Part shown: positions 57,986-64,000 of the stretch, piece after piece | How positions within the stretch are numbered: the stretch's first letter is position 1 | Layout of the letters: every line of letters begins with the position of its first letter | Assembly: GCA_030603365.1 (NCBI GenBank) | Contig: JAUVXV010000001.1 | Span: 637,037 to 701,036 of the forward strand | DNA from: Candidatus Heimdallarchaeota archaeon | Lineage (GTDB): Archaea > Asgardarchaeota > Heimdallarchaeia > Heimdallarchaeales > Heimdallarchaeaceae | DNA length: 64,000 bases | Direction of reading: 5' to 3' | The notes under the pieces: generated by a model | The model's database searches: none | What the model saw: only the letters and a program-made list of their open reading frames with translations | Told to the model about the DNA's origin: nothing | Program-made: the position numbers and the translations under genes

Positions 57986-58321
57986 AAGAGTATGGATTTC
58001 CTTCTAGTTTATATGGATAAAACATGATAATAGCCAAAATAAGCCCAAGACTAATTTTCTTTATTACACTCATCTACAATATTATTATTAATTCCATATT
58101 TAAACTGCAAATTCCAATGAGAAAATCTAGGATTTCTCCTAGAGTATCTCGGAAGTGGACAGCACTAATGTCGAAAGAAATGTCACGAATGAAAGATGTG
58201 GAAAGATAAATGAATTTTAGGGATTATGCTGTTTTTCTACACTTCTTTTAACTTCTTAAGAGAATTGCAAACTTTTGCTCTATTTCTTTAAAAGCAATTT
58301 TCTGGGATATTCTAGAGATAA

Positions 58322-58388
58322 TGGAGCTAGCTCAATTCTAAAATCGCATTATTGCGACATGATCGAAATGAAGAACATCACTAGCTCC
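58322..58388 (-). ncRNA. putative small RNA, GGAGCUA-stem family copy A
   Basis: 8-bp terminal IR GGAGCTAG/CTAGCTCC; 62/70 identical to 63771-63840; minus-strand TTTTAATA at 58411-58418. Confidence 0.6.
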
Positions 58389-58528
58389 TATCATCTCTCA
58401 TTATTACTTCTATTAAAATCTATTTCCACCAATAAAATTAAGTTAGTATTCTCTCTCGATTCTTCTCTTGTCACAAAGTATTATAGTTCTTTTTTTACCA
58501 AATTCTAGCTATATTTAAGCCACAGTTA

Positions 58529-60064
58529 GTGGTAAAAAAACAAAAAATGATCGAAATGAAAAACAAACAAATAATTAGTATATTATTAACCGCTACAGTT
58601 CTTTTCTCCATTATTATGTTGTTTCCAACATTAGAAGTATGGGGAGAAACTGGTAATTCTGTCACAATACATAGTCCAAATGGAACTACAGAAGTGTTGT
58701 TTTACAACAAATTAACTGTGAATTTCACAGTTGAGAAAGGAGACCCTCCATGGATCTATACTGGTGCTGATATTTATCTCAATAACATAGCTGTTGACTC
58801 AACAACAGATGGTCTGAGCTCTCCTTTTGTCAAAACCTACTATCCTGAAGGTTATGCAGGCACTTACTATGTTCGAGTTACAGCACACTTTGTTAAAGGG
58901 TGGCAAGATACTGAAGATGTTACAACCTCCAAAGGAAACGTAGTTAAGAACTCTGAAGATACATCAGATGTTGATGATTTAAGAATCGACAAACTCCACG
59001 ACTATGAGTCTAACAAAGGCTATTTAGATGGATCTGGTGTTACTATTTGCATCATTGATGATTATCTAAGGTGCGATAACAAAACTAATACTGCTTTTCA
59101 TAAATCTATGTATAAGTCTGGTAAAAATGATTTATACGAAGATCCAGAAAGGAAATTTATAGATATAAAATACTATGAATATAATTTTACTGATCAAGAT
59201 TTTTATGAATACTGGGAACCAGAGACAGATACAAAGGAAGAAAAATGGATAGAATTGTTCGATGAAGGGCAAGGAAATTATTCAACAGACACAGATCTGC
59301 ATGGTACTTATTGTTTTGCTACTTTGCGGCAAATAGCTCCTGCAGCTAACTATATTTTCATTTCAACACGAGATGATGCGGTGAAATTAAACAGCTCAAT
59401 ATATTGGCTATATGAAAATTACCTTACCTTAGGTATAGATATTATTAGTATGTCTGTAGATGGAACTTTGCTCTGGGAACCTATTTTAGAAGAAATAGTA
59501 GCTAATGGAACAATTCCTGTCATTGCAGCTGGAAACGGAGGTTTACAATTTAATAATTCAGAACAAATTATTTATCCCTGTTCTTTGAATTCTGCAATTG
59601 GTGTTACAGGAGTACCCGATAGTGATTACTCTAATGAAACATTAAGATGGAAACAAGAAGACATATTAAATCATGGTTATGGAATAGATATAGCATCAAT
59701 TTCTGAAGCAACAAAATTGGATTGGGAACCAGTTCAAGGTATTGATGAGTTTAGGGGAACAAGTAATGCGTGTCCTCTAGTTGCAGGAACCATTGCTCTT
59801 CTCGAACAATATCAAAATAACTACAAATCAAGTACAGATTTGAATGTAACGATAGTTCAAAATCTTTTTCAGAAAACGGGGGATGCATCTGGAAGCGCTC
59901 CAAGCCAACAAGGCACTACTATAAGTGGCAGTTACGACTGGTTAGCAACAAATTATACCGGATATCCTTATCTAGATCATGTTACGGTTTATTCCGATTA
60001 CAAACTCGGATGGGGGATAATGGATGGTTATGAACTATTTCAGTATTTTAGGAATAATTATTAA
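58529..60064 (+). CDS. secreted divergent S8 subtilase
   Basis: Signal peptide; ICIIDD, LHGTYC, AAGN, GTSNACP; likely start at ATG 58547 or 58556. Confidence 0.85.
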   Translation: MVKKQKMIEMKNKQIISILLTATVLFSIIMLFPTLEVWGETGNSVTIHSPNGTTEVLFYNKLTVNFTVEKGDPPWIYTGADIYLNNIAVDSTTDGLSSPFVKTYYPEGYAGTYYVRVTAHFVKGWQDTEDVTTSKGNVVKNSEDTSDVDDLRIDKLHDYESNKGYLDGSGVTICIIDDYLRCDNKTNTAFHKSMYKSGKNDLYEDPERKFIDIKYYEYNFTDQDFYEYWEPETDTKEEKWIELFDEGQGNYSTDTDLHGTYCFATLRQIAPAANYIFISTRDDAVKLNSSIYWLYENYLTLGIDIISMSVDGTLLWEPILEEIVANGTIPVIAAGNGGLQFNNSEQIIYPCSLNSAIGVTGVPDSDYSNETLRWKQEDILNHGYGIDIASISEATKLDWEPVQGIDEFRGTSNACPLVAGTIALLEQYQNNYKSSTDLNVTIVQNLFQKTGDASGSAPSQQGTTISGSYDWLATNYTGYPYLDHVTVYSDYKLGWGIMDGYELFQYFRNNY

Positions 60065-60186
60065 CCTAATCCTTTTCTTTTTTTTTGTTGAATTATGTCT
60101 TTATTTTGATCATGAAAGTAAAGTATAATTGATATCCTCTGATGTCTCCAAATTGTAATATTTTCCTAGGTGAAACTAGTGGTACT

Positions 60187-60897
60187 TTAGAGCTTCATCT
60201 TTTGTTTATAGAGCTTGTAGGTGGCGGAAATTAGAACTAATGTAAAAAAAACAGCTGATGTTACTTGAGATGTTTTGTTTGTATCTTGTGTTTGTGTAGA
60301 AGTAGGTGTGGGGGTAGAAGTAGTTGTAGGTATGAAAAATATTTCAGTTTCATTGTTGTGTTCATAGATATAAACGATTCTGCTTTCTAGAACATAGATG
60401 CGCATTTTTTCTATAATTACAGGAACAGTAACATAACTGCAATTAGTGTAATCAAACCAGATGATATACTCTCCTAATGGAGGGTACTCATTAACATATT
60501 GATCAACTATAATTACAAACCTATAGAAATCATCATGAATTCCAGGAGTAATAGAGTAGCTACCTTCTACCCATTCAATGATAAATAGTAATTCTGCTTC
60601 TAAGCTATCATCAACCAGATTGGCTTCCAGATATGGAAAAGGATATGGACCACAGGCATAATATACAATGATGTCTGATGAAGTGGGATTCTCAATTTGA
60701 AGAGATATATCAAAACCGAAAGCACTATAATTTTCGTCTTCAAAGATAGATGTTTCAGGAGGGAAACTAGCATCCACCACTCTTATAACTAAATTTTCCT
60801 CATCAGACTGAACTTGTACAGAACCATGAAGAATAAATGAAATAGATAACAAGGTGATTATCAACCACTTCTTCTTACGATTCATTTTCATGCTCAA
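60187..60897 (-). CDS. secreted protein with Thr/Pro linker and C-terminal anchor
   Basis: Signal peptide, PTTTSTPTPT linker, TM plus basic tail. Confidence 0.75.
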   Translation of the reverse strand: MSMKMNRKKKWLIITLLSISFILHGSVQVQSDEENLVIRVVDASFPPETSIFEDENYSAFGFDISLQIENPTSSDIIVYYACGPYPFPYLEANLVDDSLEAELLFIIEWVEGSYSITPGIHDDFYRFVIIVDQYVNEYPPLGEYIIWFDYTNCSYVTVPVIIEKMRIYVLESRIVYIYEHNNETEIFFIPTTTSTPTPTSTQTQDTNKTSQVTSAVFFTLVLISATYKLYKQKMKL

Positions 60898-63054: not shown

Positions 63055-63146
63055 TTTTAGAGAAGATTTTAACTAATTCCTAAGATTGAATGAATAAAAT
63101 AACAATTGGTTATTAGGAAGAAATTCAACCATTAACCTATTTGAAT

Positions 63147-63701
63147 TCATAGTGGATTATTGAGTTTATCATAGATGTTTTTTAGATGTGTTATCTCTCC
63201 CAATATCTCAGACAGTTCGTTATTTGGCATTTTGATTTTGTCTGTACGTATTTTTAAACCGTTTTCAACGAGTTTCTTGATGTCTTCATTTGCAATTTTA
63301 CTTAATTGTCGAACTTGTTGTTGAAAGTAATTTATGATGATAGTTGTTTTGAGAAGAAGGATATCTTTGATTCTTTCATGTGACCCTCTTAATTCTTCTT
63401 CCTTTCTCTCTTCTTTACTTAAGAAACTATTATTGATTCTATACATTTTTTGTGACAAATTTGAGTTAGGAATCTTATACATATTGGAAAAAATAAGGTC
63501 ATTTGCTTCTAAAACATTTAGATGAAAATAAATACTTGTTCCTTCCAAATAGAGTTTACTCTTTAACTCCTTTGCAGTTATTCCTTCTTGCTTCATTATT
63601 TCTTTCCAGATAGAGTATTTCAGAGGAACATTTGCTAGTTTCAGTAGACCTGGAGAGAATGGTATTTCATTCATACAATCATTAATGTAAAGACATTTCA
63701 T
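63147..63701 (-). CDS. ArsR-like winged-helix regulator
   Basis: ITAKELKSKL...SIYFHLNVLEANDLI...KMYR. Confidence 0.78.
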   Translation of the reverse strand: MKCLYINDCMNEIPFSPGLLKLANVPLKYSIWKEIMKQEGITAKELKSKLYLEGTSIYFHLNVLEANDLIFSNMYKIPNSNLSQKMYRINNSFLSKEERKEEELRGSHERIKDILLLKTTIIINYFQQQVRQLSKIANEDIKKLVENGLKIRTDKIKMPNNELSEILGEITHLKNIYDKLNNPL

Positions 63702-63771
63702 AATTTAAACCTTACGAGAAAAAACCCATTTTATAAACTGAAAAGGAACTAGTACTAAGAAAGAAATATAA

Positions 63772-63838
63772 TGGAGCTAGCTCAATTCTTTAATCGTTTC
63801 ATTGAGAGATGATCGAAATGAAGAACGTCACTAGCTCC
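63772..63838 (-). ncRNA. putative small RNA, GGAGCUA-stem family copy B
   Basis: Same terminal IR as copy A; TTTTAATA at 63861-63868 with identical spacing. Confidence 0.6.
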
Positions 63839-64000
63839 TAACGGTTCTACTTCTTACTAATATTAAAATTTTATTTCAAATATTGAGCCACTCAAAGTAT
63901 TTGTTTTCAAATTTTCTCAAACTTGGCAATATATATTCTGGTTCTTTTTATAGCTATTTCTCACTGTATACTTGGCTACTTCTAGTAGCACAATAATTGA

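Follow-up and report, generated by a model that had tools for sequence, protein, structure and literature searches.

The antisense RNA RNA-OUT of IS10 is a stable hairpin whose pairing begins at the loop, and the C4 and CI antisense RNAs repress nearby genes through imperfect pairing. The C4 RNAs of P1/P7 and the CI RNA of P4 are small closed-stem RNAs and substrates of RNase P (PMC5499578). RNA-OUT, about 69 nt long, pairs across the translation initiation region of its target and blocks ribosomes (PMC5006887). In the divergent type I systems IstR-1/tisB, OhsC/shoB and OrzO/zorO the antitoxin sRNA is divergent from its target (PMC4147584, PMC3919570). Methanosarcina mazei sRNA162 is an archaeal base-pairing sRNA, which masks a ribosome-binding site and has both cis and trans targets (PMC3510493). 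Literature searches turned up no account of a regulatory RNA in Asgard archaea that acts by base pairing.

The 64,000-nt window (the whole stretch of DNA that was analysed) contains three members of a family of short elements with constant ends, which probably encode translation-blocking antisense sRNAs, each aimed at one gene start, usually that of the divergent neighbour. The elements and their promoters are the following:

58322..58388, minus strand: predicted sRNA copy A, 67 nt, with a 9-bp terminal stem, a purine-rich internal loop, a short inner stem and an apical hairpin
58354..58377, minus strand: predicted guide of copy A, about nt 12-35 of the RNA, complementary to the beginning of the S8 protease gene
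58411..58418, minus strand: TATA box of copy A, TTTTAATA, with G1 lying 30 nt downstream of its first T
61037..61044, plus strand: TATA box of the long element
61066..61183, plus strand: long family member, 118 nt, with two tandem TTGCAGTCTTTC motifs (61086, 61100)
63772..63838, minus strand: predicted sRNA copy B, 67 nt, whose guide fits an S8 gene start just beyond the contig end (C7 or C13)
63861..63868, minus strand: TATA box of copy B

The sequence features described in the earlier note were all recovered. The two 70-bp elements (58321-58390 and 63771-63840) are identical at 62 of 70 positions, and each carries a perfect 8-bp inverted repeat at its ends (GGAGCTAG at 58323 and 63773, CTAGCTCC at 58381 and 63831). 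The TATA-like TATTAAAA is present next to both short copies (58411 and 63861), and the third, longer element (61066-61183) is preceded by TTTATATA at 61037. The TATA box of copy A follows a purine-rich, BRE-like run. Four perfect 8/8 end pairs were found genome-wide, against 0.02 expected by chance, and a reversed-pattern control gave no match across the genus. Fold z-scores were -4.1 and -4.9 for the minus strand of the two short copies and -3.15 for the plus strand of the 118-nt element, which fits the family scaffold.

Searching the genome, as the earlier note had suggested, yielded copies beyond the three in the window: C2:44392 and C14:344748, a half copy at C9:125917, variant copies at C1:340025 and C2:47168, and long copies at C9:127353 and C7:2708. 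The family is present in at least 10 genomes of the host's Heimdallarchaeia-type genus, with one to nine copies per genome. The matches of covariance model R1 rest on sequence; they were found again by patterns and by a second model, R2. A phylum-wide covariance-model search gave one real match outside the genus (G048), on a 3.9-kb contig that is almost identical to a locus of G011 and is possibly mis-binned. Exact 18-mers had four chance matches in metagenomes, all without an element, and scans of viral sequences gave no match.

In 24 copies a TATA box lies 28-30 nt upstream of G1. One-sided stem changes are all G-U on the promoter strand (5/5 in an eight-sequence alignment, six in the terminal stem of the 24-copy set); no two-sided compensatory change was found in the eight-sequence alignment and one in a 17-sequence alignment. 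The terminal 8 bp are almost invariant, whereas interiors are unrelated between subfamilies; element size is 50-75 nt. Rfam had no match over any element. The TATA spacing, the stem variants and the missing Rfam match agree with the proposal that these are RNA genes of an unrecognised family, and point to their independent transcription, which we infer. A sigma-70 promoter scan was set aside as irrelevant for archaea.

The neighbouring genes in the window include the following:

58490..58498, plus strand: degenerate sequence that is probably the TATA box for the S8 mRNA at the copy A locus
58547..58565, plus strand: predicted target of copy A, comprising an SD-like TGAT, the ATG at 58556 and the first codons of the protease
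58556..60064, plus strand: secreted S8 subtilase gene, 502 aa (Pfam PF00082, E=3.7e-18)
60187..60897, minus strand: 236-aa secreted or membrane-anchored protein of a family that was not recognised, whose gene lies convergent to the S8 gene in several modules
61274..61495, plus strand: small phage-like protein of 73 aa, encoded after the long element
63945..63952, plus strand: probable TATA box of the S8 mRNA divergent from copy B

The subtilase has a signal-peptide-like N-terminus and further in-frame starts upstream, at 58529 and 58547. At loci homologous to copy A, TTTTTATA precedes the target by ~45-48 nt, a spacing that would put the target inside the S8 mRNA. The contig end beside copy B shares an overlap of 131 identical nt with the beginnings of both C7 and C13; the joins C1-C7 and C14-C13 were assumed, either pairing being possible, and both S8 genes at the C7/C13 joins are frameshifted as assembled. 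The back-to-back arrangement with secreted-protein genes, previously noted for copy A and the long element, thus extends to copy B, which is also divergent to an S8 gene. The flanks of the copies, taken to be dissimilar, are partly related: the whole RNA/promoter/protease unit is duplicated, so they are not unrelated in every copy.

In each ~67-nt element the variable middle (nt ~12-40, apical loop included) is complementary to one particular gene at its SD and start codon. The guide of copy A (58359-58377) matches the start of the divergent S8 protease gene (58547-58565) at 18 of 19 nt. Eighteen of the 24 TATA-oriented copies, from nine genomes, form cognate duplexes of -22 to -29 kcal/mol, compared with about -10 to -14 for non-cognate leaders, and in these 18 the guide changes together with the leader of the divergent neighbour. 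Among 24 leaders the cognate one ranked first for 14 copies and second or third, behind related loci, for four; none of 30 shuffled controls equalled the cognate energies. The apical loop lies within the match in 19/19 aligned cases, and the match overlaps the start codon in nearly all. AGGTG/GGTGA are the most enriched pre-ATG pentamers of the genome. Cofolding favoured the duplex by ~4-6 kcal/mol. When ~3000 genes were scored for leader repeats, two S8 modules and a clan-CD module took the top three places. Most of the predicted targets are secreted proteases of 350-500 aa, either S8 or caspase-like; six of ten tested are S8, C14 or C13 peptidases, to which the S8 gene of the window is added. 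Ranked by energy alone, the cognate leader of copy A was sixth of 4051 start windows, so its specificity is not absolute.

Some copies have their match elsewhere. A trans subfamily (G001, G004, G011) has no local target and pairs over 24-27 nt (-36 to -42 kcal/mol) with the SD/ATG at the conserved start of a single 40-aa gene, which lies on other contigs; nine of the matching bases fall beyond the search pattern. A further copy has its match at the start of a gene 2.2 kb from it. Six of the 24 copies, the long element of the window among them, lack a cis target, and for several other subfamilies none was found within 5-10 kb. A target of the long element was not found in cis, in all start windows, with 13-nt seeds or in five relatives, and there was no targeting of the 236-aa gene; the sole candidate is the leader at C1:340246, with which it could pair over ~15 bp. 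Its guide resembles that of a subfamily targeting a 186-aa cytoplasmic gene, which was not found in this genome. A homologue of the 73-aa phage-like protein follows a guide-targeted gene in G007.

From these sequences we infer a mechanism in which each element is transcribed in vivo as a stand-alone small RNA, whose constant terminal stem (GGAGCUAG...CUAGCUCC) would close a weakly paired upper hairpin. The 14-27-nt guide would occupy the 5′ arm and the apical loop, and the exposed loop, on the anti-Shine-Dalgarno side, would seed pairing to a single mRNA leader. Unzipping of the upper hairpin would follow, and the duplex, covering SD and start codon, would block translation and probably invite cleavage by RNase III, for which the genome has a full-length gene at 129 kb of C11; Lsm proteins are encoded too. 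The elements look like gene-specific off-switches. The usual target would be the divergent neighbour, 105-190 nt away and mostly a secreted S8 or clan-CD protease, with some members acting on distant genes, and RNA and protease could thus move and duplicate as a self-limiting module. Such control would presumably hold the proteases off until they are required.

On the best reading the family would work like the divergent type I antitoxins (IstR-1/OrzO) or RNA-OUT, yet it is neither. With the former it shares a divergent sRNA with 18-21 nt of leader complementarity (15-21 nt or more being typical), duplicated loci with cognate specificity and an available RNase III (PMC4147584, PMC3919570). Type I targets are membrane toxins of ~29 aa, whereas the targets here are mostly secreted proteases of 350-500 aa and not small hydrophobic toxic peptides; moreover, the SD/AUG itself lies within the Asgard pairing, a single scaffold is used for unrelated targets, and the system is archaeal. 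RNA-OUT is similar in size and pairs over the translation initiation region (PMC5006887), but the Asgard guide is not the perfect complement encoded on the opposite strand: it lies ~190 bp from its target and is mismatched. sRNA162 is a single processed RNA acting through a single-stranded linker, whereas the Asgard family is multi-copy with constant ends and exchangeable guides (PMC3510493). C4 and CI are likewise small closed-stem RNAs, but Rfam C4 did not match the Asgard elements, and no 5′ processing would be needed here, unlike in C4/CI, because the element's own TATA box seems to direct initiation at the stem.

The near-invariance of the terminal 8 bp around unrelated interiors is a constraint beyond what a protective stem needs. 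It would fit RNAs that are guides or precursors for a dedicated effector, the stem being a protein handle, or RNase III excising a short pre-miRNA-like guide, with the effector finding target RNA or DNA. The size of 50-75 nt, the guide on the 5′ arm and the occurrence of RNase III in 26 of 30 relatives within the taxonomic family agree with this, yet we consider it unlikely: no conserved protein gene adjoins the elements, Piwi was found in only one of 31 genomes of the taxonomic family and not in this one, TROVE was not found here, and RNase III is spread through the class, far more widely than the RNA family. Eukaryotic pre-miRNA hairpins and the HrAgo1 system also involve a 60-70-nt imperfect hairpin with the guide on one arm, and HrAgo1 an Asgard lineage with RNase III in the same genome (10.1101/2023.12.14.571608). 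In this genome an RNase III-family enzyme is present, as judged by its gene, but no Argonaute was found, and the guide runs through the loop. We regard it as a rather unlikely, tentative extension that the stem is the handle of a candidate protein, or an RNase III signal, in programmable Argonaute-independent silencing of Heimdallarchaeia, with one scaffold redirected to new genes through guide exchange, a prokaryotic analogue or forerunner of the miRNA hairpin gene.

Guide copy and gene start are also direct repeats in the DNA, and could form a switch, operated either by recombination that removes the promoters or by a protein bound to the two repeats. Three independent fusions of a half element to a gene start, with exact loss of the intervening promoter region (G000 C9:125917, G016 C165, G022 C371), would fit it, as would the guide-target mismatches, which have no G-U excess (21 G-U vs 26 C-A), and element ends readable as a 12-bp palindrome split at CTAG. 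Between short direct repeats, however, such deletions are to be expected by accident. Neither a consistently linked recombinase nor an empty palindromic site was found, and the switch leaves unexplained the fixed-distance TATA box, the G-U-only stem variants and the match of 24-27 nt with a gene on a different contig. The last, found in three genomes, argues for a diffusible RNA and not a DNA repeat; we hold the switch to be improbable.

The tRNA-acceptor-like stem with a discriminator A, proposed in the earlier note, fared poorly. Mimics matured by RNase Z and the CCA enzyme, serving as decoys or aminoacyl carriers, would agree with a 7-bp stem beginning at G and followed by A, and a tRNA of another genus in the taxonomic family (L058) has an identical acceptor stem, which makes it possible that the elements derive from a tRNA or are matured at the 3′ end as tRNAs are. 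But the A follows in only 20 of 24 members, no called tRNA of the genome has this acceptor, and neither ARAGORN (in the window) nor Rfam gave a match. The stem runs on to 8-9 bp, there is no cloverleaf, T-arm or conserved T-loop, and the co-varying guide is unexplained, which makes mimicry very improbable.

Other RNA classes were rejected. Box C/D-like UGAUG and UUGA (cf. the RUGAUGA/CUGA kink-turn) vary freely between members, flank a symmetric loop and have no Rfam match; this reading, the plus-strand 'A-box/B-box' reading and that of a Y RNA (Ro60/TROVE PF05731 was not found in this 89%-complete genome) were dropped because motifs were not conserved or the partner was missing. For an H/ACA RNA (3′ ACA box, bipartite pocket), the trailer after the stem is variable and the guide is one continuous strand.

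Mobile DNA of MITE or REPIN type, as alternatively suggested, is largely refuted and has next to no likelihood: several copies have inverted ends and a few lie near IS607-like genes or resolvases, but flanking direct repeats are ≤3 nt, interiors are unrelated, each genome has 1-9 copies, and where a copy lies depends on particular gene leaders. Target-site duplications and empty sites are missing for this alternative and for that of a recombination site.

If real, the antisense sRNAs constitute an RNA family that comes with predicted targets, with natural controls of specificity in its cognate and paralogous leaders, and with a candidate nuclease. Hairpin-encoded guides would then be in use, with RNase III present, in the lineage closest to eukaryotes, which would bear on the origin of RNA silencing. 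The sequences also suggest that the secreted proteases of these archaea may be under antitoxin-like control.

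The two 70-bp elements, for which the earlier note had claimed near-identity, were indeed identical at 62/70 positions and bounded by perfect 8-bp inverted repeats, and the positions that it gave for the long element and for the three TATA-like boxes were confirmed. Perfect-ended copies numbered four in the genome (G000; 3.65 Mb, 33% GC) vs 0.02 expected, and the minus-strand folds gave z = -4.1 (copy A) and -4.9 (copy B). The elements had no match in Rfam and no ARAGORN tRNA match, and a literature search found no description of the RNA family. The proposed search for the shared ends in this genome and other Asgard MAGs was run: of the 25 genomes of the genus, at least 10 carried the scaffold by pattern and model searches, and a strict-pattern search gave no match in 58 other genomes of the same class.

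Features of the window (the end of contig C1) and of contig C11
58322-58388, minus strand: copy A, 67-nt element
58556 (start), plus strand: S8 protease gene divergent from copy A
61066-61183, plus strand: long element, 118 nt
61274-61495: multi-copy 73-aa protein (also C3:35146, C1:488844, C7:2918)
61954-63054 and 63147-63701: NYN-domain RNase and HTH protein, flanked by the long element and copy B
63772-63838, minus strand: copy B, 67-nt element
C11, about 129.4 kb (L131:1156-1965): full-length RNase III with dsRBD

On its plus strand copy A shares 18 of 19 nt with the S8 gene start (BLAST side-match); an RNA read from its TATA box would thus be an antisense RNA to the SD and start codon of that gene. 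The same relation to a gene start, in different sequences, was present in relatives. Pairing was tested with 24 copies oriented by the TATA box alone, each scored against the divergent leader of every locus. Eighteen of the 24 formed predicted duplexes of -22 to -29 kcal/mol with the leader of their own locus, the non-cognate means being -10 to -14. The cognate leader ranked first for 14 copies and was outranked only by related loci for four; no shuffled control was as strong as these cognate duplexes. The match between the guide, the variable middle of the RNA, and its target covered the apical loop in every case and a start codon in nearly all. In one case it covered a 35-codon ORF that lies upstream of the protease and overlaps the protease start with its stop codon, an arrangement shared with hok/mok. 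Additional cis cases were found later in the related genomes G020, G007, G017 and G022. The SD signal of the genome consists of GGTGA-type pentamers. When the 4051 start windows were ranked solely by energy, copy A's cognate leader came 6th, which makes cross-talk with other SD-AUG leaders likely.

Since guide and target are direct repeats on DNA, and deletions between them were seen in three genomes, a switch acting at the DNA level had to be weighed. Half-elements joined directly to gene starts, with loss of the intervening promoter region, occur at C9:125917-125970 and at loci L161 and L163 (three genomes). Against such a switch, a separate TATA box precedes every element by 28-30 nt, one-sided stem changes are all G-U on the TATA strand, and one copy has its match at a gene start 2.2 kb off. 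Moreover, in a subfamily of G001, G004 and G011 the pairing extends over 24-27 nt and its partner, on other contigs, is the SD/ATG of one conserved gene for a 40-aa protein; nine of the matching bases lie beyond the search pattern. A test for G-U excess among guide-target pairs was negative, and two-sided covariation within the RNA was not demonstrated in the alignments. The predicted trans target, an unannotated coiled-coil gene (L181, L190 and L191, at about 1514-1636), has three copies in G000 (C14:311474, C7:88689, C11:66422). The MITE alternative raised earlier fails for the elements, as does each of the tRNA, C/D, H/ACA and Y RNA readings.

As predicted antisense RNAs the elements resemble in mode of action two divergent sRNA systems, IstR-1/tisB and OrzO/zorO, in which complementarity spans 18-21 nt and RNase III is involved (PMC4147584, PMC3919570), and also RNA-OUT (PMC5006887); however, their targets are not small toxins and they are not encoded opposite them. 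M. mazei sRNA162 is an archaeal precedent for RBS masking (PMC3510493). In G027 an intron-containing tRNA, probably Ile(GAU) (L058, C1:1792627-1792737), has the family's terminal 7 bp as its acceptor stem, possibly the origin of the RNA scaffold or a coincidence. ARAGORN reported a tRNA with an undetermined 4-base anticodon (attt) at C13:71399-71475 of G000.

Most target proteins have a signal-peptide-like N-terminus, and Pfam identified an S8, C14 or C13 peptidase in 6 of 10 tested targets, plus the window gene; one relative of the proteases was found in a Promethearchaeati MAG. A small cytoplasmic protein family forms a second class of targets. The element at C1:340025 is divergent from a gene for a 40-aa Cys-containing peptide and a radical-SAM-like gene (C1:340340-341916, L116), possibly a RiPP cluster with the leader as the guide's target. 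Lsm proteins are encoded in the genome, and its RNase III is complete, having both the catalytic motif and the dsRBD. Within the class, 55 of 83 genomes had a PF00636 match, unusual for archaea. Piwi and TROVE domains were not found in the genome; among 31 genomes of the taxonomic family, Argonaute candidates were confined to G016, which has two Piwi-domain genes (L192, L193).

The unit of short RNA, divergent S8 protease, convergent 236-aa protein and long RNA is repeated on C1, C2, C7 and C9, and partially on C13. A 131-base overlap, identical throughout, exists between the ends of C1 and C14 and the starts of C7 and C13; through it copy B, like copy A, faces an S8 gene. As assembled, the S8 genes at C7:144 and C13:144 both carry a frameshift near the start (pseudogenes or homopolymer errors). 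No protein gene is conserved next to the RNA elements; a paralogue of the window's HTH protein also lies behind a degenerate element at C1:342800. Other subfamilies whose ends are the same or nearly so (L144, L145, L146, L147, L139, L140) have no target within 5-10 kb, and three such copies are grouped within 5 kb in G023.

A second hairpin type, with ends GAUGAG...CUCAUC, occurs at C15:84440-84500 and C1:250600-250670. At both loci a 16-nt guide corresponds to the start of the adjacent secreted gene, and one single-base change between the loci is common to guide and target.

The long element has the family stem and promoter spacing, and no cis target was found for it. Its doubled motif resembles guides directed at the small cytoplasmic family, a search for which in this genome found no member. 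The phage-like 73-aa gene behind it (ESM Atlas neighbours mostly phage proteins; score 0.92, of low recognition value) follows a gene of that family in G007. Perhaps the long element is an orphan; it could also guard against an incoming element. At 61124-61194 its internal GGATGAGAAC is complementary to GTTCTCATCC just beyond its 3' stem; the two would allow an alternative fold similar to the second hairpin type.

We propose that the RNA would be transcribed from its own promoter and stabilised by the terminal stem. The loop would seed pairing on the SD side, and the upper hairpin would then open; in cofolding the duplex was favoured by 4-6 kcal/mol. Translation would be blocked, with possible cleavage of the duplex by RNase III. 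On comparative sequence evidence, the elements are real and form a family, restricted to the genus, of predicted antisense sRNAs in which the ends are constant and the guides exchangeable.
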